A stretch of DNA of 64,000 nt from an uncultured Bacteroidota bacterium (GTDB taxonomy: Bacteria > Bacteroidota > Bacteroidia > Bacteroidales > JAAUTT01): assembly GCA_963766305.1 (NCBI GenBank), contig CAVYAE010000071.1:19054-83053 (forward strand). The letters are read 5' to 3'. A program made the translations under genes and the position numbers. This document shows positions 4,337 to 37,660 of the stretch, piece by piece. How positions within the stretch are numbered: position 1 is the stretch's first letter; each line of letters opens with the position of its first letter. A model generated the notes under the pieces. That model worked only from the letters and a program-made list of their open reading frames with translations, was not told the DNA's origin and did no database searches.

Positions 4337-4700
4337 TATCCAAAGCATTCATAATTGAAAATTATGAGCTTAGAAAAGTAGGTTAATTTTAAATATAATA
4401 ATCCATGTAATAAACATATATTTAAATATTTAAGAAGCTGCTTTGCGGATTAGAGAACGGAAACTGGTAGTACCCCTACTAATGAAAATAATTTTATCCA
4501 AGCCAACCTGCAGTGATTTATGTACTTCCTTTTAATTTACCCCAAAGGAGGATAAGATTTTGTTTCCTTAAATCAAAAGCTATTACGGTCATAAAAAGAA
4601 TAAAGGTGAATGACCAACAATGCAGGAAAGAATGGAGATTTGAAAGTGGTTTTTGAAAGAATAGCATGTCTCGGTAGTTTTGAAGTAACTAATTATCTTA

Positions 4701-4916
4701 ATGGCTAATTTATCTTCTTTATTATACAAAGAAGAAAGAATAAAACGAGCTAGTATTGCTTTTTGGATTAACTTACCAATATGTTTAGTATTAATAATTG
4801 TTTTTAAATCTATTGATAGTCAGATCTTATGGAAGATTATTGCTTCTTCGATTGGGTTTATCGTGTTTTTAAGTCTAACCATCTTATTATTAAGGCTATT
4901 GATTCGATTACAATAA
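4701..4916 (+). CDS. small two-helix membrane protein (hypothetical)
   Basis: 71 aa with two hydrophobic stretches; weak support. Confidence 0.3.
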   Translation: MANLSSLLYKEERIKRASIAFWINLPICLVLIIVFKSIDSQILWKIIASSIGFIVFLSLTILLLRLLIRLQ

Positions 4917-4994
4917 AAGTAGGTTGACTAATTATTATATTGAAAATTATCAAATAATTGCTATTTTTGAATAGCTTAATTGGCAATTCAATTA

Positions 4995-5462
4995 ATGAAA
5001 CAAAGGGTATATATTGATACTTCTGTTATTGGAGGATGTTTTGATACAGAATTTGAAGAATGGTCAAAAAAATTGTTTGATGATTTTAGAACTGGTAAAA
5101 AAGTTGCCGTAATATCTGATATTACGCTAGATGAGTTATCAAATGCGCCAGAAAATGTTCAAAACAATTTTAAAGCATTGCCGGAAGAAAATATTGAGAT
5201 GTTAATATCAGAGGAAGAATCTAGAATACTAGCAAATAAATACATATTAGAAGGTGCAGTTTCTAAAAAATTCTACGAAGATGCGCTTCACATTGCTATA
5301 TCTACCATAAATCAGGTAAATGTATTAGCAAGTTGGAATTTTAAACATATAGTTAATCTTGATAAAATCAGAATGTATAATGCTGTTAATTTGAAAAATG
5401 GCTATTCAATTTTAGAAATAAGAAGTCCAAGAGAAATATTAAAATTCGATGATGATGACTAA
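4995..5462 (+). CDS. PIN-domain-like protein (VapC-like toxin candidate)
   Basis: N-terminal VYIDTSVIGG (first acidic PIN residue context), later acidic/Ser-Thr positions (ISDITLDE, DALHIA); ATG at 4995 preferred over TTG at 4980. Confidence 0.6.
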   Translation: MKQRVYIDTSVIGGCFDTEFEEWSKKLFDDFRTGKKVAVISDITLDELSNAPENVQNNFKALPEENIEMLISEEESRILANKYILEGAVSKKFYEDALHIAISTINQVNVLASWNFKHIVNLDKIRMYNAVNLKNGYSILEIRSPREILKFDDDD

Positions 5463-5616
5463 TAAATCATTTGATGCAGTTAAAATGATGAGGGATATTC
5501 GATCAAAACATCATGATGAATACGAAAACAATCCGGATTTAAGAGAACAAAGGTTAGCCGAAATTCGAAAAAAGTATAAAGCTAGATTCAAAAATAATAG
5601 AGCCGTTAGTATTTGA
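5449..5616 (+). CDS. 55-aa charged micro-protein overlapping the PIN gene stop (possible cognate partner)
   Basis: ATGATGATG start overlaps the last 14 nt of the PIN ORF; translation MMMTNKSFDAVKMMRDIRSKHHDEYENNPDLREQRLAEIRKKYKARFKNNRAVSI; below the ORF-track size cutoff. Confidence 0.4.
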   Translation: MMMTNKSFDAVKMMRDIRSKHHDEYENNPDLREQRLAEIRKKYKARFKNNRAVSI

Positions 5617-5806
5617 AACCAATCGCAAACTTTTAATTTTAAGATTTGTTGTATGGAAATTTATTATGTTAAATAGCAACTAATTGAATATAAATTAGTT
5701 GCTATTTAACAGTTTTATTATAAACTAAATAACATCTATACACCTAATTATCAACATAATACTATTTATCAAATAAATTATAAGACAATGTTCAAAGAAT
5801 CTTGAG

Positions 5807-6343
5807 TTATTTTATCCTTACTATAAAATCCCAATTATCTCTGTCACCTTTTTTCCCATTATTTAATATAGAGATTCCTGCCAAAGATATAAATCCACCA
5901 CCAATTATTTCAAAAATGCCAATATTAGTGTAAAAATTTGATCCTATATCACCTTGGTGGCTATTTGCATTAATAACATTTCCAATACCTACTATTGCCG
6001 TCAAACTACCTACTCCAGTTATTATACTTCCAATACTTCTTGCAGTTAACGATTTTATATTTATCGCTTCTATTGAATTAATAGAGAAAATATTTTTAAT
6101 AATATTTGATGTTTCTCCACTGTTTACATAGTTATCTATCTCAATATTCGAACAATCAATTATTTTTAGTTGACCTTTGGCTATACTCTTATTGTAGCAA
6201 TAAACTTTTATATTTTGCCCATCATGAAATACTACTTCTTTACCAGAAATTCTGTTTTTAATTACTAGTTCTTTTGTTTGGCTATACCCATGAATTAGAA
6301 CTAATAATAATACTAAGCAAAGAATAGTCATTTTTCTATTCAT
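5807..6343 (-). CDS. secreted/membrane protein with glycine-zipper-like C-terminal half (paralog of 2659..3234)
   Basis: Signal peptide; VIKNRISGKEVVF..QNIKVYCYNKSIAKGQLKII aligns by eye with 2659..3234; Gly-rich hydrophobic region; WDF near the end. Confidence 0.5.
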   Translation of the reverse strand: MNRKMTILCLVLLLVLIHGYSQTKELVIKNRISGKEVVFHDGQNIKVYCYNKSIAKGQLKIIDCSNIEIDNYVNSGETSNIIKNIFSINSIEAINIKSLTARSIGSIITGVGSLTAIVGIGNVINANSHQGDIGSNFYTNIGIFEIIGGGFISLAGISILNNGKKGDRDNWDFIVRIK

Positions 6344-28662: not shown

Positions 28663-29210
28663 GTCAATTCCTTTAATTCCTTTTTTAATGAAACACTGAG
28701 TTCATTGTATAACTTCAACCTTGCTCTCTGTAGTAGAACCTTTAAATAATTTATTTTCTTATCAACAATTTTAGAAATCTCTTTTAAGCTCAAATCCTCA
28801 TAATAATAAAGTGAAAGTACAGTGTAATCAAGTTCATTTAGCTTTGACAAAGCTTCACTTAATAAACGTTTTCGGTCATATGAATCAAGATTATTAACTG
28901 CACGCTCAATTTGATTATTTTCAAAAACGTCAGTTAAATTATCATCAATCTTGACAACTGTGTATTTCTTAGGCCTTACTGAAGAAATAGCCGTGTTACA
29001 AACAATCCTATAAAACCAAGTTGAAAACTGGCTTTCATTTTTGAATTTATTCAATCCCCTGAAAGCTTTAACAAAAGAGTCCTGAACTATCTCCTCAGAA
29101 TCTTGTTCGTTTTTAGTGATCTTAAGAGCTATATTAAAAGCTAGATCTTTGTATTTGTTAATTATTGCAGAATAATCCCAATCCTGATTGCTATTTTGGT
29201 TAACTGTCAT
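28659..29210 (-). CDS. RNA polymerase ECF-type sigma-70 factor
   Basis: EEIVQDSFVKAF, FSTWFYRIVCN (region 2), LSLKEISKIVDKKINYLKVLLQRARLKL (region 4 HTH). Confidence 0.8.
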   Translation of the reverse strand: MTVNQNSNQDWDYSAIINKYKDLAFNIALKITKNEQDSEEIVQDSFVKAFRGLNKFKNESQFSTWFYRIVCNTAISSVRPKKYTVVKIDDNLTDVFENNQIERAVNNLDSYDRKRLLSEALSKLNELDYTVLSLYYYEDLSLKEISKIVDKKINYLKVLLQRARLKLYNELSVSLKKELKELT

Positions 29211-29224
29211 ACACAATTAATCAA

Positions 29225-29563
29225 CTATGCAATTTTCGATTTATGGAAATATATAAGCAATAACCCACAACAAACCAGAACCATAGTTGGGTATGTAACA
29301 AAATTTGGTATGTCTAATGTTAAATTTAGTATATAACCAACCACAACACCAATTGCAACACCAATTAACATCAACCCGGTTTTAAAACTATTCTGCTCAT
29401 TTTTCTTTTGTTTTGGGTCAGCAAGTGCAGGATCCATTCCCTTTGCAATTAAAGCAAGTTTTTCTTTGTTTTCTAACTGTTTTGCTTTGTATTTAATGAA
29501 TAAAAAGAAAACCGCTAACCCCATTCCAAAAATTGGCACTAAATACATAATATTTCCGTTCAT
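29225..29563 (-). CDS. small membrane protein upstream of ECF sigma
   Basis: 112 aa, two or three hydrophobic helices separated by a Lys-rich linker; 8-nt gap to the TTG-start ORF of the sigma gene (14 nt to the preferred ATG at 29210). Confidence 0.4.
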   Translation of the reverse strand: MNGNIMYLVPIFGMGLAVFFLFIKYKAKQLENKEKLALIAKGMDPALADPKQKKNEQNSFKTGLMLIGVAIGVVVGYILNLTLDIPNFVTYPTMVLVCCGLLLIYFHKSKIA

Positions 29564-29827
29564 ATCTTAAAAATTTTAAAGTTTATTCATTAGACGCAAT
29601 AATTTATCAATCGGTATCATTTTGTAGCGAGTTTTTTTATTAAACCTAACATCCCCGATAAGTGCAACTAGTTAGGATGTTTCCAGCATCCGTGTCATGT
29701 ACTGTAATGTTAAATTGCAATAAGTTTATAAATAACTTGTTACAGTCTTAACGTGAATTTGGTAGAAAAGGCTATCGACACCCATATTAGGCAAAAGACA
29801 GTTTAAATAATTAATTTATTTCAAAAG

Positions 29828-30217
29828 CTATTGTATTGTCTTCTTCCTTAAAGATTCTCCTTTTAAATCAATTCTATGTGCTGTATGCACCAACCTGTCT
29901 AATATGGCATCAGCTATAGTGCTTTCACCAATAATTTCATGCCATTTATCTACTGGTAATTGTGAGTTGATCATGGTGGATTTTTCATGATGTCGATCCT
30001 CTATTATTTCCAAGAGCATCATCCGTGTGTTCTGATCCAGTGACTGCATACCAAAGTCATCAATGATTAAAAGGTCTTGTTTTTCGATTTGCTTTATTTC
30101 TTTGAAATATGATTCGTCAGCTTTTGACATCCTAAGCATGGTAAATAGCTTTTGGGCACTGAAATAGGCTACCCTTTACCCCAGAAGGCATGCCTGGTGT
30201 CCAATGGCTGTAGCGAC
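29828..30217 (-). mobile_element. istB: IS21-family istB (helper ATPase) remnant, N-terminally truncated and frameshifted
   Basis: LLIIDDFGMQ (Walker B), ...DRHHEKSTMINSQLPVDKWHE...ADAILDRLVHTAHRIDLKGESLRKK; upstream out-of-frame piece VATAIGHQACLLG; no istA present. Confidence 0.7.
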
Positions 30218-30539
30218 ATAAAAATAAATGTTATCTAAAGTTTTACCACTTACCGAAGGATTTATTAATGCTTTTACATCTTCAGTAAAATGTAAACTTA
30301 AATTTTCTTTAATTGCTGCTCTAATTGTAAATCCAAATTCAGTAGCAGTACCGCTGAATAATTTATTGTTCGTATTGTCAATGTAATTACCAATAGAAGG
30401 CCTTATTGCAAATGATAAATAAAAACCTTTATGTTCATGTTCCGGAGCAACAATAATGATAAAAAAGATTAGTTCAGATAATAAAAATATTAATTTTTTG
30501 CCTCCCTTGTCCTAACAAATTCCAAAACTTCTCACTCAT
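30218..30539 (-). pseudogene. 5' fragment of an outer-membrane beta-barrel-like gene, truncated by the IS21 remnant
   Basis: MSEKFWNLLGQG.. then (frame change in an A6 run) KKLIFLLSELIFFIIIVAPEHEHKGFYLSFAIRPSIG...; the reading frame runs straight into istB-derived sequence. Confidence 0.3.
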
Positions 30540-30617
30540 TTGTATTTTTAATAAGATAAAATGTGATATCACCCATTTACCTGTGTTTTTACTAATAATC
30601 AGGATAGTTTTTCTGTC

Positions 30618-31625
30618 TTAAATTGAGTTTAACATTGTTATACGTTCATTGTAATGTGTTATATAAAGTTTCTTTGTATCTTTATCAAGAAATGATTTTT
30701 TTACCAATTCCTCAACTCCTGATTGTTTATTAAGAAAAGGTTCTAGTAATTTATTAACCCTGTTTTCCTTTAAGCCAATTATCTTTCCAAATTCAATAAA
30801 ATCTTCTTTACATGGATGATGTTGGTCGTTTTTAATTCTACAGTCGGACCAATGCCACTCTTTAAATAAATCATTAGTTAAAGCAAAAAAACTTTCTTCT
30901 TCAACATGAATTCTGGTGTCCATAAGGTCGTAAGCAGGACTTAAAATATAATCGCCGTTACTTGTTTCAAGTATAGAAAAATTCTTCAAGTGAGCATCGC
31001 CATTTGAAAACAAAAAGTTGAAAACTACCAAACTATAAAATTTCTCCATTTCAATTTTCCAAGCTGCCACGTGTTGCATAATTAATTCGGCAATTTCTTC
31101 ATAAGAATAATCATATTTAAAATTAAGACCTGCATTTTCTTCTGTTTTACCTGCCAGTGATGCAAAGTCTTCTTTTCCCAATTTAACACCATTGGATACA
31201 ATATCAAAACGCCTTGTAATATATGCAGGTTCATCGTTACTAAAAAAGACTAACCCATTTTCTGCTGTAGTGATTTTATAAACCTGATTGGCTATTTGCA
31301 TGGTTACATGTTCATTAGCTGGTGCCATGTATGTTTTCTGTAACCCATGTGGTTTGGGTTTGAGAATATATGTGCCCTGTTCTTTTTCTTCAGTTAAACG
31401 AAGTCTATTTTTATCAAGTATTATCGAATACTTTTCCTGAACACCTGAAATAGAAATTCTTTTCATGTTTTGCATAAATTTTTTTTGGTCTCGCTCGTCA
31501 ATTTCAGGGGCATTATATGGTAATATGTGGCTAACCTTCCGCCCATCAAACATTCTTCGAACAAAAAGTGGGCTATACTCTGAAAATCCTTCCAATAGCA
31601 GTCCGGGGCAATTCTTTATTTCCAT
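30618..31625 (-). CDS. hipT: HipA-like Ser/Thr kinase lacking the N-terminal subdomain (HipT-type toxin)
   Basis: 335 aa; P-loop region RISISGVQEKYS, catalytic GDAHLKNFSIL, SPAYDL; N-terminal subdomain is encoded separately upstream. Confidence 0.75.
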   Translation of the reverse strand: MEIKNCPGLLLEGFSEYSPLFVRRMFDGRKVSHILPYNAPEIDERDQKKFMQNMKRISISGVQEKYSIILDKNRLRLTEEKEQGTYILKPKPHGLQKTYMAPANEHVTMQIANQVYKITTAENGLVFFSNDEPAYITRRFDIVSNGVKLGKEDFASLAGKTEENAGLNFKYDYSYEEIAELIMQHVAAWKIEMEKFYSLVVFNFLFSNGDAHLKNFSILETSNGDYILSPAYDLMDTRIHVEEESFFALTNDLFKEWHWSDCRIKNDQHHPCKEDFIEFGKIIGLKENRVNKLLEPFLNKQSGVEELVKKSFLDKDTKKLYITHYNERITMLNSI

Positions 31626-31636
31626 AGTATGAATCT

Positions 31637-31960
31637 CTAATTAATTTGCTTAACAGTTATTGCACCAATAGTATCGTATTGTGCTGTAGCCAATAACAAA
31701 CCAAAAAAATCCTTCTCATCAATTTTTAACAGTTTTGATTGGACTACCCTATTGGTTCCTTCGGAAAGCATGTTGTAAAAAAAAGGGAATAAGTGTTTGG
31801 AGGTATATTCTATTTGTTTTTTTGGTAATGTTAAGCTTATACCAGGCATTTTATTATCATTAAAATATGATACATCGTATTTAAAAACATACGAACCGCT
31901 GTCTGTTTCGAACAATATGCCAGCCAAAACTCCATTCCGGTAAATCTCAGCTTTTCTCAT
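31637..31960 (-). CDS. hipS: HipA N-terminal-subdomain-like protein (HipS-type)
   Basis: 107 aa; MRKAEIYRNGVLAGILFE...YVFKYD... resembles the N-terminal (couple_hipA) region of full-length HipA; sits between the HTH gene and the kinase. Confidence 0.7.
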   Translation of the reverse strand: MRKAEIYRNGVLAGILFETDSGSYVFKYDVSYFNDNKMPGISLTLPKKQIEYTSKHLFPFFYNMLSEGTNRVVQSKLLKIDEKDFFGLLLATAQYDTIGAITVKQIN

Positions 31961-32169
31961 TTATTTGGTTTTTTAAGTTCAAGTTTCAGTTCGAAACCTA
32001 ATACATCAGCAATCTTTTGGAGGTTACTCAAGGTAATATTTCCTTTGCCGCTTTCGAGCCTCTTTAAAGTTGCTATTCCAACTTCAGAAAGTTCTGCAAG
32101 GTAATCCTGATTTATTCCAAGGATATCCTTTCTTTCTTTGATAATCTTAATTATTTCTTCGTTTGTCAT
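31957..32169 (-). CDS. hipB: XRE-family HTH regulator (HipB-type)
   Basis: 70 aa; INQDYLAELSEVGIATLKRLESGKGNITLSNLQKIADVLG; 4-nt overlap with the next gene. Confidence 0.75.
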   Translation of the reverse strand: MTNEEIIKIIKERKDILGINQDYLAELSEVGIATLKRLESGKGNITLSNLQKIADVLGFELKLELKKPNK

Positions 32170-32188
32170 ATTATCTAAAATATGGTAG

Positions 32189-32204
32189 GTATCATTTGTG
32201 ATAC
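32189..32204. promoter_or_regulatory. palindromic operator candidate 1 (GTATCATTTGTGATAC)
   Basis: GTATCA-N4-TGATAC inverted repeat 20 nt upstream of the hipB start. Confidence 0.55.
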
Positions 32205-32248
32205 TTTTTGGTAAAGTTACTATGTTTTTACAAAAACGCGATATAATA

Positions 32249-32264
32249 GTATCATTTATGATAC
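32249..32264. promoter_or_regulatory. palindromic operator candidate 2 (GTATCATTTATGATAC)
   Basis: Same half-sites, 60 bp from site 1. Confidence 0.55.
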
Positions 32265-32309
32265 TAATTGAAATGATTAAGCGCTAAATAGCATGAAAAT
32301 GTAAGAATA

Positions 32310-32325
32310 GTATCATAAATGATAC
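32310..32325. promoter_or_regulatory. palindromic operator candidate 3 (GTATCATAAATGATAC)
   Basis: Same half-sites, 61 bp from site 2. Confidence 0.55.
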
Positions 32326-32604
32326 CGCAATGCAGCTAAATAAGTTTAAATAATTTATTGAATCATTAGAGTTTTCAACTTATAACTACTTCGATTTGAA
32401 GCCACATACAGGGCAATAATTAACCTGACTTCCGTATTCATCATTACCAGCCCAAAGCTTGCCTTCAGTATCTTCATAACAATATTTAATGGCTATGCCA
32501 TAGGCTTTATCGGGGTTGTGCAAATCGTAACGGTGTTTATCTGGTAACGAAAGGTTTACATATTTTAGTTAATCAAAGAAGTTATTTTCCATAGGTATCT
32601 GTTT

Positions 32605-32712
32605 TAAGGACAAAACTCGCCACATTTGCTGCAATACAAGCGGGCATCGTCAATAATTATTTTTACATACACCCTAAAGGTGTCGTTGCCGCATTTGTCG
32701 CAAATAACCATT
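32605..32712 (-). CDS. 35-aa CxxC...CxxC zinc-ribbon micro-ORF (possibly first piece of a decayed gene)
   Basis: MVICDKCGNDTFRVYVKIIIDDARLYCSKCGEFCP*; a second start-less frame downstream ends ...NYCPVCGFKSK*. Confidence 0.25.
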
Positions 32713-33251
32713 TCTTCCAAATAAATAAGTGAATGTTTTATTTTAAAAGTTTTAGAAGCTGATATTATTATTTTATCTTATAATAAAGGTTCTTAAATGT
32801 GTTTACAATTTTCTAACGTTTACCCTTTTATAATTCTTTGAGTTAATTCAGGAGAATTTCTTGCTAAATTACTTCCTATTTTAGCCTGTTACAGGATTAT
32901 TTTAGGACAATCTTTTTTTTAGGATAACTGAGATTAATTCCAAAATTCAAGTGGTAAAAATTTACGCATTAATGTTGGTATATTATAGACACCGCTAGTT
33001 ACCAAAATTTTTTCAAGTAGGCTATTTTACCAATTGTTATGTTTGAAATGTTAATTTATGTAATTAAGTGAAAATTAATTTATTTAATCTATTATTGTTT
33101 GGACTTTCTGTAAAAAATTATTATTATTGACAAAAAATCAATCGAAGTGTTACAGTTAACCATTCAAAGATGAGTAGAACCTGCTAAATTATTGTGTCTG
33201 TAAAATAGTTATCGTCAATATTAAAAAGAAATCTACAACTATCACAAGGTT

Positions 33252-35307
33252 ATGCCTTTAAATATTAGAATAAAAGGGAATCAAGATACTGAAGAATATA
33301 AAGACGCACTAACTCTTAAAGAAATATTTGTCAGAGATATTCCAAAAGGGATAAACGGAGATATTTTAATAATTTCAAATGCAACATTATTCGGGCAGGA
33401 GATTAAAGATATTGATTTAATAGTTTTAGGAAACTTTGAACGATATAATTTGTTTTTAGACTCAAAATCAATCAATTCAGAAAAAAAAGAATGTGAACTT
33501 AAAAACCGTAATATTTTTATTAATAATTTCTGTTTTGTAATAGAAACGAAACATCATCGTTCACAGGATGTTGTTTTGGATGGGTTGACTCTTTGTGTTA
33601 AATATAACAATAGACTTGCAGATGTCACGACTCAAAGCGAAAAGCAAAAATATTCACTAAAAAATTATTTTTGCGATAGAATAAATTCATCTCCATATAT
33701 ATGTAATTTCATCTGGCTTAGGAATGTAAGTCCAAATTCTCTGCGAGAATTAACTGGGACAGAACAGCATTTTACAATAAATAATAATTATTTATCTTCA
33801 GATTTTAATATCAAAAGGATTTTTCAACTTGCTTGTTTACAAAATTTTCCATTTACTCCTATAGATAAAAATACAAATCAAGAAAAAGGATATTCAGTCT
33901 ATAATTCTTTAAAAAAATTTAATGATAAATATGATATAAATGAAATGTATTCTATTTTTCAATTGTTTGAAAAAATTAAAAGTGGAACAGGTGATTTAAC
34001 GAGGAAAAAAATTGAATATATAACCAGAGATTTATTAAATACTCAACTATATGCTCAGGCTATTGGTCAAAAATTAGTTATTGTTAATGGAAGAGCAGGT
34101 ACTGGTAAAACAATCAAACTATTAACTATTGCTTGTAATTTAGCTATTGATAGAGGTGAGAGATGTTTGATTTTAACATATAACCATGCACTTGTAAGTG
34201 ATATTAAGCGTACTCTTGCATTAGCTGAAATTCCTAATCAAATTGACAATTATTCAATAAATATAATTACACTTCATAAATTTTTTTATGAGTTGATTCT
34301 TGGGTTTGGATTAGTTGAAGGTAAATACATCCCAGAATACCTTTCAAATTATTACCATTATATAGTAGAACTTACAAAACACATTGAAAGCGGTCTTATT
34401 GATGATAGAGACATTCAAGCGTTAATGAAAAACAGACATGATGAAGTAGCTTGGGATTATGTATTAATTGATGAATCTCAAGATTGGGATATCGTGAAAG
34501 AGATTTAATCTTCAAAATCTTTACCCACAAGAGAGTATTGATTACAGATGGAATTGACCAATTGGTGAGAACCCAATCTCATTGTAACTGGACAAAAGGA
34601 CTAAAACCTAATATTGATTTTCATTTAAAACAACCAGAAAGAAAGAGTTTAAGGCAAAAAGTAAATCTAATTAAGTTTGTTAACTCGTTTGCAAATGAAA
34701 TAGGTATTCAATGGAATATAGAACCAAAAGAAGAATTAATTGGTGGTAAAGTAATTATTTCAGTTAAACCATACAATAAAGAGTTGCACCAAAAGGAATT
34801 TTTTTATTGCAAGGAAAACGGTAATAGTCCTTATGAAATGATGTTTCTTGTACCACCTTCTCTCGTTGATAAAATAAAGTCAAGTGATGGAAAAGATGTA
34901 TTCCGCAAATTTAAGGATGAAGAAAAATTTAAACAAATGGGCATTCCGATTTGGGATGGAACAAACACAGATTTAAGAACCCAATATGTCGTTAATTTAG
35001 AAGAACATAGGGTTTTACAATACGATTCGTGCAGGGGACTTGAAGGCTGGACTGTTGTTTGTTTAGATTTGGATGAATTTGTTCGTTATAAAAAGGAAAC
35101 TTATGAGGTAATGGTAGAAGATGGTGAGTTAGCTTTGGAGACTGAAAAGAAAAAAAGAAAAGGTTTGTATATTTATGGGCATTAATTCCCTTAACAAGAG
35201 CCATTGATACATTGATAATTACTATTAATAATAGAGATAACGAAATTGGAAGTAAACTTTATAATATATATAATAAATATCCTGACTTTGTTGACTGGAT
35301 TGAATAA
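33252..35307 (+). pseudogene. NERD-like nuclease fused to SF1 (UvrD/RecD-like) helicase, Nhi-like; reading frame broken by two -1 shifts
   Basis: N-terminus DIDLIVLG...FVIETKHH (D...ExK); Walker A GRAGTGKT; motif II LIDESQDW at end of frame 1; frame 2 (34484..35185) carries DSCRGLEGW; frame 3 (35146..35307) carries LIPLTRAIDTLII (helicase motif VI); shifts at GGG 34486-34488 and A7 35150-35156. Confidence 0.65.
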
Positions 35308-35385
35308 ATAATAAAAAATACTAGCTAAAAATTGGCAGTCATTTCAGTTTGACGATATTAAGAATTAAACATTAAGTAATAAAAA

Positions 35386-36786
35386 ATGGAACTATTTTTG
35401 GATAATTTTAGAAGTTTTAAAAATCAAAATTTCAAATTTTCGAAGTTTAACATTTTAATTGGAGAGAATAGTTCTGGTAAAAGTAGTATTTTAAAGTTTT
35501 TTTTAATATTAAAGCAAAGTCTACAGAGTTTTCAAAGTAGGAGTGCAATAAATATTACGCTTCAAGGTGATTATGTAGATTTGGGAAATTATGAAGAAAT
35601 GATTTACTACCATGATTTGTCACAAACACTAACATTTTCATTTACTCTAGATTCTGATTATCCTCTGTTTTTTAAATCATATGTGACAAAAACCGAAAAG
35701 AGAAATATAAATTCAAAAAATGAAGATAATAATATTTTAGAAGTATACAGATTATTAAAAGATTATCCCACTAAAATATCTTTTTCTTTAAGTAAGGATT
35801 TAAAACAACACGACAATATTAAAACTATTATTTCGAATCCAAAATTAGGAAGTATTGAAATTGTTACAAAGTTAAATGAGAATAAAGAAATTGAAAATGT
35901 AATATCTTCAGATGCAATTTGTGATATTATATTTATAGACTTAGATAATAATAAAACTGAATACACAAATATTGAATATGAGAAGGATGCTTTTTTTTCA
36001 ATGGTTAAAGGTTATAGTTTAAATGAAAAATTTGATAAAAAATTTAGTGTAGATTTCTATCAAATAGCATATTTGTTAATAACTCAGAACTTTATTGAAC
36101 GCTTTGCCCAAAGAATTCAATTTATTAACCCGATTAATTCTGTTCCTAAAAGATTTTTATTTCGAAAAGACCCTTCTAGTAAATATATAAATTTAAATTT
36201 AGAAGAGTTGGTAAATATTTTATCCGATGAAACTCTGGATAAAATTAGTTCGGAAAAGTTAATTTCCAAAATTAATGAAGCTGTAAATTTTTTTGGTATA
36301 GCAAATGAAATAAAGATTAATAAAGACAATAAAATTCCTGTTGTTGAACTTAAAGCAAAAGTTAAAGATTTATGGAGTAATATTACAGATGTGGGTTATG
36401 GCACTTCTCTTCAACTTCCTATATTATTCCAAATAATATTATCAAACACGAAATCTGGTGGTGAAAATATATTAATTGAACAGCCTGAAGTTCATTTGCA
36501 CCCCAAACTTCAAGCACAATTTATTGAAACAATTTTAAAATTTGGTTTTAATAATAAATACTTCATTGAAACACATAGTGAACATATTGTTAGGAAACTT
36601 CAAATTATGGTTAAGAATAATATGTATGGAATTAAGCCTTCTGATATTACAATTCATTATTTTAGACGAGAAAATGAGGTTTCTCACGTAACATTTCATG
36701 AAATACTTTCTGATGGCAAATTAAATCCAAACTTTCCTTCAGGTTTTTTTGATTCTTCTTACTTATTAGCAAAGGAACTTTTATAA
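35386..36786 (+). CDS. ABC/AAA_21-type ATPase with DUF3696-like C-terminal tail, no fused nuclease domain
   Basis: Walker A GENSSGKSS, Walker B region ILIEQPEVHLHP, H-loop ETHSEHIV, tail NPNFPSGFFDSSY. Confidence 0.75.
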   Translation: MELFLDNFRSFKNQNFKFSKFNILIGENSSGKSSILKFFLILKQSLQSFQSRSAINITLQGDYVDLGNYEEMIYYHDLSQTLTFSFTLDSDYPLFFKSYVTKTEKRNINSKNEDNNILEVYRLLKDYPTKISFSLSKDLKQHDNIKTIISNPKLGSIEIVTKLNENKEIENVISSDAICDIIFIDLDNNKTEYTNIEYEKDAFFSMVKGYSLNEKFDKKFSVDFYQIAYLLITQNFIERFAQRIQFINPINSVPKRFLFRKDPSSKYINLNLEELVNILSDETLDKISSEKLISKINEAVNFFGIANEIKINKDNKIPVVELKAKVKDLWSNITDVGYGTSLQLPILFQIILSNTKSGGENILIEQPEVHLHPKLQAQFIETILKFGFNNKYFIETHSEHIVRKLQIMVKNNMYGIKPSDITIHYFRRENEVSHVTFHEILSDGKLNPNFPSGFFDSSYLLAKELL

Positions 36787-36796
36787 TTTTATTGTT

Positions 36797-37660
36797 ATGC
36801 AATTAAGTGTAGCATTGTTTTCCGACATTTTAGTTGAATACTTTAATAGTCGGAACAAATTTGACAAATCCATTATTGAATTTAATCTTCAATCAATTAT
36901 TGAGAATCCAAAAAATAAAATAATTGTAACAAAAGGTTATATTGACTTTCTTGAAACAATATTTAATAAGGAATCCCTGTATTATGACAGTTATACAAAT
37001 TTTTTTACAGAAATATTTGATAATGACCTAAAATGTGAGATACAAAAATTAACAAAAGCAGAAACTATTGAATCCGAGTTTGTAAATATGGCAAATAATT
37101 GTCAACATACAAGTATAGCAGTATCTATTAAAAACAAGGGGTTTACACTTCTAAACTATGTCTATATTGAGAATTATTATAATTGTTTGAAAACAAAACT
37201 TTTTATAGATATATTAAAGGATAGGAAACATATTTCAAGATATTCCGATTTTATTAGTAAATCTCAAATTGTAGAATTTTTCAATTCCTTGTATAATTTG
37301 CCAAGAAGAATTAATTCAGTTGTAATATTTGAAAGATATGCTAATGTTAATCATACTTATTTTGATTTTTTTAATGACCATAATATAGAAGTTAAATATT
37401 ATAAATTAAATGCATCTTTAGTAGATAGCTACGCATTAAAAAAGAAATTTAAAAAGGTAAGTCTATATAATACTTCAAATCAAGATTTGATTCATGAAAG
37501 GTCTATTATTTTTGATAATTTTGTAATAAATCTTGATGAAGACCCCTGTTATCTTGATGCAAATAGAAAAACTTGGACGATTGCTGTTGAATATTCTTCA
37601 AAAACTGTTAATGACTTAACAAATAAATGCAAAGATTTTAATAAAATGGCATGTGTATGA
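36797..37660 (+). CDS. uncharacterised 287-aa partner of the ATPase (C-terminal IHERSIIFDN motif)
   Basis: 10-nt gap after the ATPase stop; no TOPRIM, HNH or PD-(D/E)xK signature seen; H233-x-R-x4-D-N at 37493-37519. Confidence 0.5.
   Translation: MQLSVALFSDILVEYFNSRNKFDKSIIEFNLQSIIENPKNKIIVTKGYIDFLETIFNKESLYYDSYTNFFTEIFDNDLKCEIQKLTKAETIESEFVNMANNCQHTSIAVSIKNKGFTLLNYVYIENYYNCLKTKLFIDILKDRKHISRYSDFISKSQIVEFFNSLYNLPRRINSVVIFERYANVNHTYFDFFNDHNIEVKYYKLNASLVDSYALKKKFKKVSLYNTSNQDLIHERSIIFDNFVINLDEDPCYLDANRKTWTIAVEYSSKTVNDLTNKCKDFNKMACV

Follow-up and report, generated by a model that had tools for sequence, protein, structure and literature searches.

Does the region at positions 30606-32333 of this stretch of uncultured Bacteroidota DNA (Bacteroidales; contig CAVYAE010000071.1; "the window" below means the whole 64,000 nucleotides analysed) encode a complete HipBST toxin-antitoxin system, and what might the three evenly spaced palindromes upstream of its genes be doing there? 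Gene order, domain content, intact catalytic residues and three genome-unique operators together identify the locus as HipBST, and we put at roughly 85% the probability that it is a self-contained, tripartite type II toxin-antitoxin cassette of the Legionella-type subfamily. The argument rests on the following elements:

30606..32333, minus strand: conserved hipBST cassette, about 1.7 kb, from O3 to the hipT stop codon (delimited by blastn against relatives)
30618..31625, minus strand: hipT, 335 amino acids (aa), HipA-type Ser/Thr kinase toxin without N-subdomain 1 (Pfam HipA_C, 4e-37)
31637..31960, minus strand: hipS, 107 aa, presumed antitoxin, homologous to N-subdomain 1 of HipA (Pfam Couple_hipA, 7e-18; NCBIfam TIGR03071, 1.3e-25)
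31957..32169, minus strand: hipB, 70 aa, predicted Cro/C1-type helix-turn-helix (HTH) repressor (Pfam HTH_3, 4e-11)
32189..32204, no strand assigned: operator O1, GTATCACAAATGATAC on the coding strand, ending 19 nt before the hipB ATG and lying over the predicted transcription start
32212..32219, minus strand: predicted -7 box TAACTTTA (Bacteroidota consensus TAnnTTTG)
32239..32241, minus strand: position of the -33 element, TCG in the window and TTG in most relatives (column-wise comparison)
32249..32264, no strand assigned: operator O2, immediately upstream of the -33 position
32310..32325, no strand assigned: operator O3, the distal one, at the upstream border of the conserved cassette

The three genes are co-directional, tightly linked and in the HipBST order of HTH regulator, HipS and HipT: the hipB stop and the hipS start share the ATGA at 31957-31960 (a 4-nt overlap), and 11 nt (31626-31636) separate hipS from hipT. 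An earlier note on this DNA, made by a model from the letters alone, had described this succession of a 70-aa HTH protein, a 107-aa HipA N-subdomain protein and a 335-aa kinase, with the same overlap and gap; the open reading frames (ORFs) and coordinates agree with it. Hidden Markov model searches place HTH_3, Couple_hipA and HipA_C each on the expected protein. Couple_hipA covers HipS residues 5-103, as expected of a homologue of HipA N-subdomain 1, while HipA_C (residues 57-296) is the sole domain detected in HipT, with no Couple_hipA found by Pfam in the kinase. NCBIfam concurs for HipS; the match of HipB to its couple_hipB model, TIGR03070 (2.7e-11), falls under the model cut-off. In the whole genome, hipS gives the single Couple_hipA match.

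Two HipBST systems provide characterised counterparts, that of E. coli O127:H6 (Vang Nielsen et al., 2019, PMC6581861; Baerentsen et al., 2023, PMC10627512) and that of Legionella pneumophila (Lp), Lpg2368-2370 (Zhen et al., 2022, PMC9325769; Lin et al., mBio 2023, PMC10653801). The best match of the window HipT in the PDB is L. pneumophila HipT (8ezr_B, 1.5e-27, residues 42-333, 99.9 bits over about 290 residues), followed by E. coli O127 HipT (7ab3_C, 1.7e-19, 73.5 bits). The split-HipA architecture that the note had proposed is upheld on both sides of the split: the kinase aligns end to end with HipT chains, while full-length HipA aligns to it over only about 55 residues around the catalytic loop (PDB sequence search), and the 107-aa protein resembles the HipA N-subdomain and matches solved HipS chains.

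HipT has the features of a HipA-type kinase without N-subdomain 1: a Gly-rich loop (R56-I-S58-I-S60-G-V-Q-E-K65), a catalytic motif with its Asp (G-D210-A-H-L-K214-N215) and a Mg-binding D233. In an alignment reaching down to 31% identity, the invariant columns include S58, G61, Q63, K65, D210, H212, K214, N215 and D233. The Ser-x-Ser loop, likewise claimed in the note, is present in the translation and kept in 118 of 120 close homologues and in all relatives down to 49% identity. With two serines parted by a small aliphatic residue and followed by G-V-Q-E-K, it fits the S-psi-S group of HipT kinases (Baerentsen et al., 2023, PMC10627512). The corresponding serines of E. coli HipT, S57 and S59, are autophosphorylated and modulate control by HipS (PMC10627512); by analogy, S58 and S60 are probable autophosphorylation sites with a similar tuning role. 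Six residues of L. pneumophila HipT are required for HipS binding (Zhen et al., 2022, PMC9325769), and four of these are kept in the window protein (D141, E152, K170, K214); R134 of the Legionella kinase corresponds to I142. The protein collection contains at least 7,955 homologues of the kinase, almost all with a length of 335 aa.

HipS is closest to L. pneumophila HipS (7vkb_B, 6e-14, 55.6 bits), then to E. coli O127 HipS (7ab3_B, 2e-8, 37.7 bits) and H. influenzae HI_0666 (3e-6), and aligns with residues 6-103 of E. coli HipA (2.5e-3). Its E67 is the counterpart of E. coli HipS Glu63, the residue that points into the active site. HipB is best matched by L. pneumophila HipB (8ezt_A, 4e-6), and E. 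coli O127 HipB was not detected among its PDB matches. Its recognition helix region reads V-G-I-A-T-L-K-R, and its C-terminus (...KKPNK) is without the Trp that HipBA-type HipB inserts into HipA (PMC10627512). With its HTH domain, no C-terminal Trp and genome-unique operators that co-vary with the recognition helix (below), HipB is a putative autorepressor.

All three proteins thus find their best solved match in the Legionella system (bit scores against Lp and E. coli O127, respectively: HipT 99.9 and 73.5, HipS 55.6 and 37.7; HipB matches HipB(Lp) only). The Legionella system has the same gene order, a similarly short HipB (about 70-76 aa), a HipS without the Trp wedge and, by published description, three palindromic operators set at equal intervals, each with 6-nt arms, the proximal one near the hipB start and the promoter. 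It differs from the window in its period, 71 bp (18-nt sites and 53-bp gaps in 28 species; PMC10653801) against 60-61 bp, and in the kinase loop, S-V-Q with a single serine against S-I-S. The E. coli O127 system, which the note had taken as its model, resembles the window in its tripartite architecture, in its double-serine S-psi-S loop (S57/S59 for S58/S60), in the Glu63/E67 pair and in the catalytic and Mg-binding aspartates, D210 and D233, which have identical residue numbers in both kinases. The architectural likeness therefore stands, but the nearest characterised relative is the Legionella system, E. coli HipBST being more distant in HipT and HipS and undetected in HipB; E. coli hipBST is also described as being without the Legionella operator motifs (Lin et al., PMC10653801).

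Two-gene HipBA shares with the window a homologous kinase core and HTH repressor and, presumably, autoregulation through several palindromes bound by HipB dimers. It differs in that its kinase is a single polypeptide including N-subdomain 1, with only the short alignment to HipT given above, and in that HipB is the antitoxin. HipBA operators are four in number, of the form TATCC-N8-GGATA, and are more closely spaced. Their arms are of 5 nt (PMC10653801).

How ordinary, then, is the locus? HipBST itself (2019), the S-psi-S loop group (2023), the Legionella subclade with its wide spread in Bacteroidota (Lin et al., 2023, PMC10653801) and the three evenly spaced HipB operators (2023) are already published, and the window locus is a well-supported, largely ordinary member of this known system, with triple operators that are family-wide. 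What appears to be new relative to the HipBST literature examined is the 61-bp period of its clade, the roughly 10-bp quantisation of spacing across clades, the operator/recognition-helix classes and a double-serine loop combined with proteins nearer the Legionella system.

The operators are sharply defined. The window contains exactly three copies of the pattern GTATCANNNNTGATAC (GTATCA-N4-TGATAC), starting at 32189, 32249 and 32310, with start-to-start spacings of 60 bp (O1-O2) and 61 bp (O2-O3), so that the pattern search reproduces the three near-identical 16-bp palindromes that the note had listed. None of 100 dinucleotide-preserving shuffles contained three matches (mean 0.10), and in the whole genome (4.55 Mb, 35% G+C) these are the only exact copies, against about 0.5 expected from base composition. 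The palindromes extend beyond 16 bp, O2 being TAGTATCAT-AA-ATGATACTA with 9-bp arms. O2 ends 7 nt ahead of the -33 position, and 7 nt separate the -7 box from O1 on its downstream side; O1 should therefore cover the transcription start. A scan for sigma-70 promoters and terminators gave 13 promoter-like sites where 12.0 were expected, which is uninformative since promoters in Bacteroidota are of the -33/-7 type; the promoter was assessed instead by the TTG/TAnnTTTG motif, with the consensus as cited in the literature, together with conservation. A Bacteroidota-type promoter is predicted between O2 and O1, with O1 over the start site, expected at about 32204-32206.

Is the array part of the cassette, and is its spacing maintained? 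The comparison drew on 42 genome loci from Bacteroidales, Rikenellaceae, Prolixibacteraceae and other metagenome-assembled genomes (MAGs), with HipT 49-85% identical; many are MAGs and some are near kin, so the counts below are not counts of independent events. The hipB-hipS-hipT order is found in 40 of the 42, and hipS-hipT alone in one more. When window positions 29000-34000 were compared by blastn with all fetched loci, no match started before 30606 or ended after 32333, and on the upstream side DNA similarity to relatives stops at 32325-32333. The flanks of window and relatives are unrelated, and with similarity confined in this way the moving unit is the cassette including its operators.

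The operators were compared in the window and 36 relatives with HipT 74-85% identical. Three are present in 27 of these 37 loci, at about -157, -96 and -35 from the hipB ATG, and two further loci are cut off by a contig end (the other eight are taken up below); every related locus with sufficient upstream sequence has a site equivalent to O1. O3 and O2 are mostly 61 bp apart (22 loci), with 3 loci at 60 bp and 2 at 62 bp; for O2 and O1 the distance is 61 bp in 29 loci, 60 bp in 6 and 62 bp in 1. Of 34 loci, 31 have TTG-N19-20-TAnnTTT[GA] in the stretch from O2 to O1. Mean pairwise identity is 63% in the O2-O1 spacer and 40% in the O3-O2 spacer: the latter keeps its length though not its sequence, which argues for selection on distance.

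The same question can be put to more distant relatives. A profile-based scan added 79 loci (HipT 54-82% identical, most 54-63%; six of them fall again in the close clade) from Chitinophagaceae, Flavobacteriales, Saprospiraceae, Cyclobacteriaceae, Ignavibacteria, Balneolaceae and others, 77 of them with the hipB-hipS-hipT order. In a search free of any motif, 55-58 of 76 loci had their best repeated 16-mer upstream of hipB at a lag of 60-62 bp, compared with 4 of 76 shuffled controls, and at least three phased sites, typically at -132, -71 and -10, are found in 36 of the distant loci. The sites themselves differ. TCACA-N6-TGTGA operators pair with the HipB helix V-S-T-N-T-L-Y-K, GTGC-N8-GCAC with V-G-L-R-T-L-K-A, AAACA-N6-TGTTT with V-N-I-N-T-V-I-R, and GTATCA-N4-TGATAC with the V-G-I-A-T-L-K-R of the window. 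This co-variation of operator class with recognition helix, seen across 77 relatives, is the best available sign that HipB reads the sites, with shared ancestry contributing to it. In the TCACA-type clade (many of loci L052-L121) the proximal operator (TCACATTATAATG) reaches from about -10 to +3, across the hipB start codon; its right arm enters the coding sequence, which implies very short transcript leaders. The distance from O1 to the ATG is about 24 bp longer in the window's clade.

A second HipA_C gene in the window's genome leads to a sister clade with a different period. Its product is much nearer L. pneumophila HipT (1.4e-95) than is the window HipT and has the loop K-M-S-V-Q-G-V-Q; relatives of this S-V-Q kinase occur in 74 of 401 Bacteroidota genomes searched. 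In the best 29 loci, which were fetched for spacing, the closer ones have TACYGY-N4-RCRGTA operators, usually three, at -163, -92 and -21. Adjacent sites are 71 bp apart in 14 site pairs, 72 bp in 8, 70 or 73 bp in 3, 40-41 bp in 3, 61 bp in 2, 67 bp in 1 and over 100 bp in 3. It is thus this Bacteroidota clade, not the window, that matches the Legionella period, with its 71-72 bp. Spacings of 41, 61 and 71-72 bp fit multiples of 10.15 bp, the single 67-bp pair and the three above 100 bp being exceptions; since the spacings differ by about one or two helical turns, we infer from these counts some support for a constraint to one face of the helix.

What would such an array do? Going by the characterised relatives, HipT would be an ATP-dependent Ser/Thr kinase that arrests growth, HipS would bind it and push its Gly-rich loop out of the ATP site, and a HipB dimer would bind the palindromes and repress the operon without neutralising the toxin. 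In both characterised HipBST systems HipS is the antitoxin, displacing the Gly-rich loop of HipT from the ATP site. HipB alone represses, and HipBST or HipBT does so at lower expression levels (PMC10627512); in L. pneumophila, HipB binds the three operators, which are regularly spaced, and HipT causes a supershift of the HipB-DNA complex (PMC10653801). Comparison among relatives suggests that the promoter (-33 and -7) would lie between O2 and O1, with O1 on the transcription start, O2 abutting the -33 position and O3 one additional 61-bp step upstream of O2. Given the fixed period of 61±1 bp, the three bound complexes would be on about the same helix face and probably act jointly; the bound species are most likely HipB2(HipS-HipT)2 complexes on bent DNA. 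Contact between complexes on adjacent sites of straight DNA was considered and rejected: 61 bp is about 207 Å, against 135 Å for the E. coli HipBST hexamer in the crystal, and neighbour contacts would therefore need DNA bending. As a tentative extension, HipBST operator spacing may be quantised in steps of about one turn, with the array scaffolding HipB2(HipS-HipT)2 on one face of bent or wrapped DNA as a single repressosome. If so, toxin sequestration would be physically coupled to promoter occupancy, which invites comparison with the dimerisation of HipA across hipBA operators. The note's proposal of cooperative or looping repression gains comparative support from the contrast between the constant 61±1 bp and the drifting O3-O2 spacer, and is still something that we infer.

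Several observations weigh against parts of this picture. In HipS, Thr69 takes the place of the Trp65 wedge, which is essential in E. coli HipS. The -33 position in the window is TCG rather than TTG, so that the strict promoter pattern is not present there. A tRNA synthetase is a possible target of HipT, TrpS being that of E. coli HipT; the target of L. pneumophila HipT is neither TrpS nor GltX. The other three concern the array: eight of the 37 loci have enough upstream sequence and show only O2 and O1; 61 bp amounts to 5.8 turns at a pitch of 10.5 bp and needs about 10.17 bp per turn for sites to share a face, so that of the note's "about six helical turns" the distances hold and the turns only at the smaller pitch; and Lin et al. 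(PMC10653801) raised for Legionella HipB the prospect that sites are filled independently, with stepwise gel shifts and intermediate occupancy. These last three are also what one would expect if the operators were independent HipB sites, giving graded occupancy with no contacts between them, the spacing being a relic of tandem duplication kept because indels are rare. We think this unlikely: the O3-O2 spacer, at 40% pairwise identity, is nonetheless 60-62 bp long in 27 of 27 loci, the 61-bp period persists in clades whose operator sequence has wholly changed, and the sister-clade clusters at 40-41, 61 and 70-73 bp (one pair at 67, three above 100) are steps of about one turn, unlike drift.

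The roles assigned to the proteins, and to the cassette as a whole, have rivals too. HipB might be the real antitoxin, as in two-gene HipBA, to whose HipB it is homologous (the nearest NCBIfam model is even named as an antitoxin family), leaving HipS as a detached structural lid. This seems very improbable when HipS is the antitoxin in both characterised systems, when the window HipB is only 70 aa long and without the C-terminal Trp, and when a decayed second locus in the same genome has lost hipS and the 5' end of hipT together, with hipB intact. As to biological purpose, the cassette might serve mainly in abortive infection against phage, rather than in persistence or addiction, with phage shutdown of host expression freeing HipT. 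It moves as a unit between unrelated flanks and lies in an accessory island with an IS21 remnant, a helicase/AAA gene and an AAA_15/DUF3696 ATPase pair, with weak PADLOC matches to the candidate pair PDC-M03A/B; for a different kinase system of the HipA family, a role in phage defence has been validated (PMC13092281). Yet co-location in an island is circumstantial, the PADLOC scores are low (at most 32 bits), and phage defence by any HipBST is not shown in the HipBST literature examined, so that we regard this role as possible and somewhat doubtful.

The locus itself adds one cassette to a family of thousands, and its value lies in the comparison it opens. The three-operator layout of Legionella becomes a general property of Bacteroidota HipBST modules. 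Each clade has its own fixed period, 61 or 71-72 bp, and the step from one clade to the other is about one helical turn. The regular operator array that the note thought useful for comparison is real but less novel than the note assumed, three evenly spaced operators having already been reported (PMC10653801). Clade-fixed periods and at least four operator "dialects" amount to a natural experiment on the cooperativity of HipBST repression, and the dialects, tracking the HipB helix, are potentially orthogonal small repressor-operator pairs for Bacteroidota promoters. What the second phosphoserine does could be studied in this lineage, which has the S-I-S loop but is otherwise nearer the single-serine Legionella kinase.

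The second Hip locus of the genome (contig C31, 152207-155875; coordinates 1390-2531 of locus L001) is Legionella-like and has a decayed look. Its hipB is intact (90 aa), with the recognition helix G-K-T-V-I-Y-D of L. pneumophila HipB, its hipS is a 17-codon stub (MRKAKVFVKGIEVFKKH*), and its hipT, missing about 28 N-terminal residues, is otherwise an open frame of 283 aa. One deletion looks to have taken the antitoxin and the 5' end of the toxin together. Two palindromes upstream, TACTGCTATGGCAGTA and TACCGCTATAAGAGTA, are 61 bp apart.

Around the cassette, the window has the look of a defence or accessory island, with the following genes:

29828-30139, minus strand: IstB (IS21) C-terminal remnant
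33252-34508, continuing to 35185, plus strand: gene with AAA_19/helicase domain matches, split over two frames
35386-36786, plus strand: AAA_15/AAA_21/DUF3696 ATPase

The 287-aa partner of this ATPase (within 33252-37660, plus strand) has no Pfam match, and the PADLOC search returned only the weak matches mentioned above. Just upstream of O3, at 32380-32712 on the minus strand, are ORFs of zinc-ribbon type (CxxC...CxxC), one of 34 aa (32608-32712 including the stop) and a second frame ending ...NYCPVCGFKSK. These micro-ORFs were considered as a part of the module, and O3 as serving a divergent upstream gene; both ideas were rejected, as nothing past 32333 is conserved in any relative.

One of the related loci, L022 (MAG contig CAVVYS010000005.1), has a second, divergent hipB'-hipS'-hipT' set at 4413-5897, about 400 bp downstream of the first. 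The loop of its HipT' reads S-I-A-I-P-G-V-Q-A-K, with a serine at neither phospho-site position, and HipS' contains P-E-G-W, with the tryptophan known from E. coli HipS. These tandem HipBST sets recall the "pentapartite" locus mentioned for L. pneumophila.

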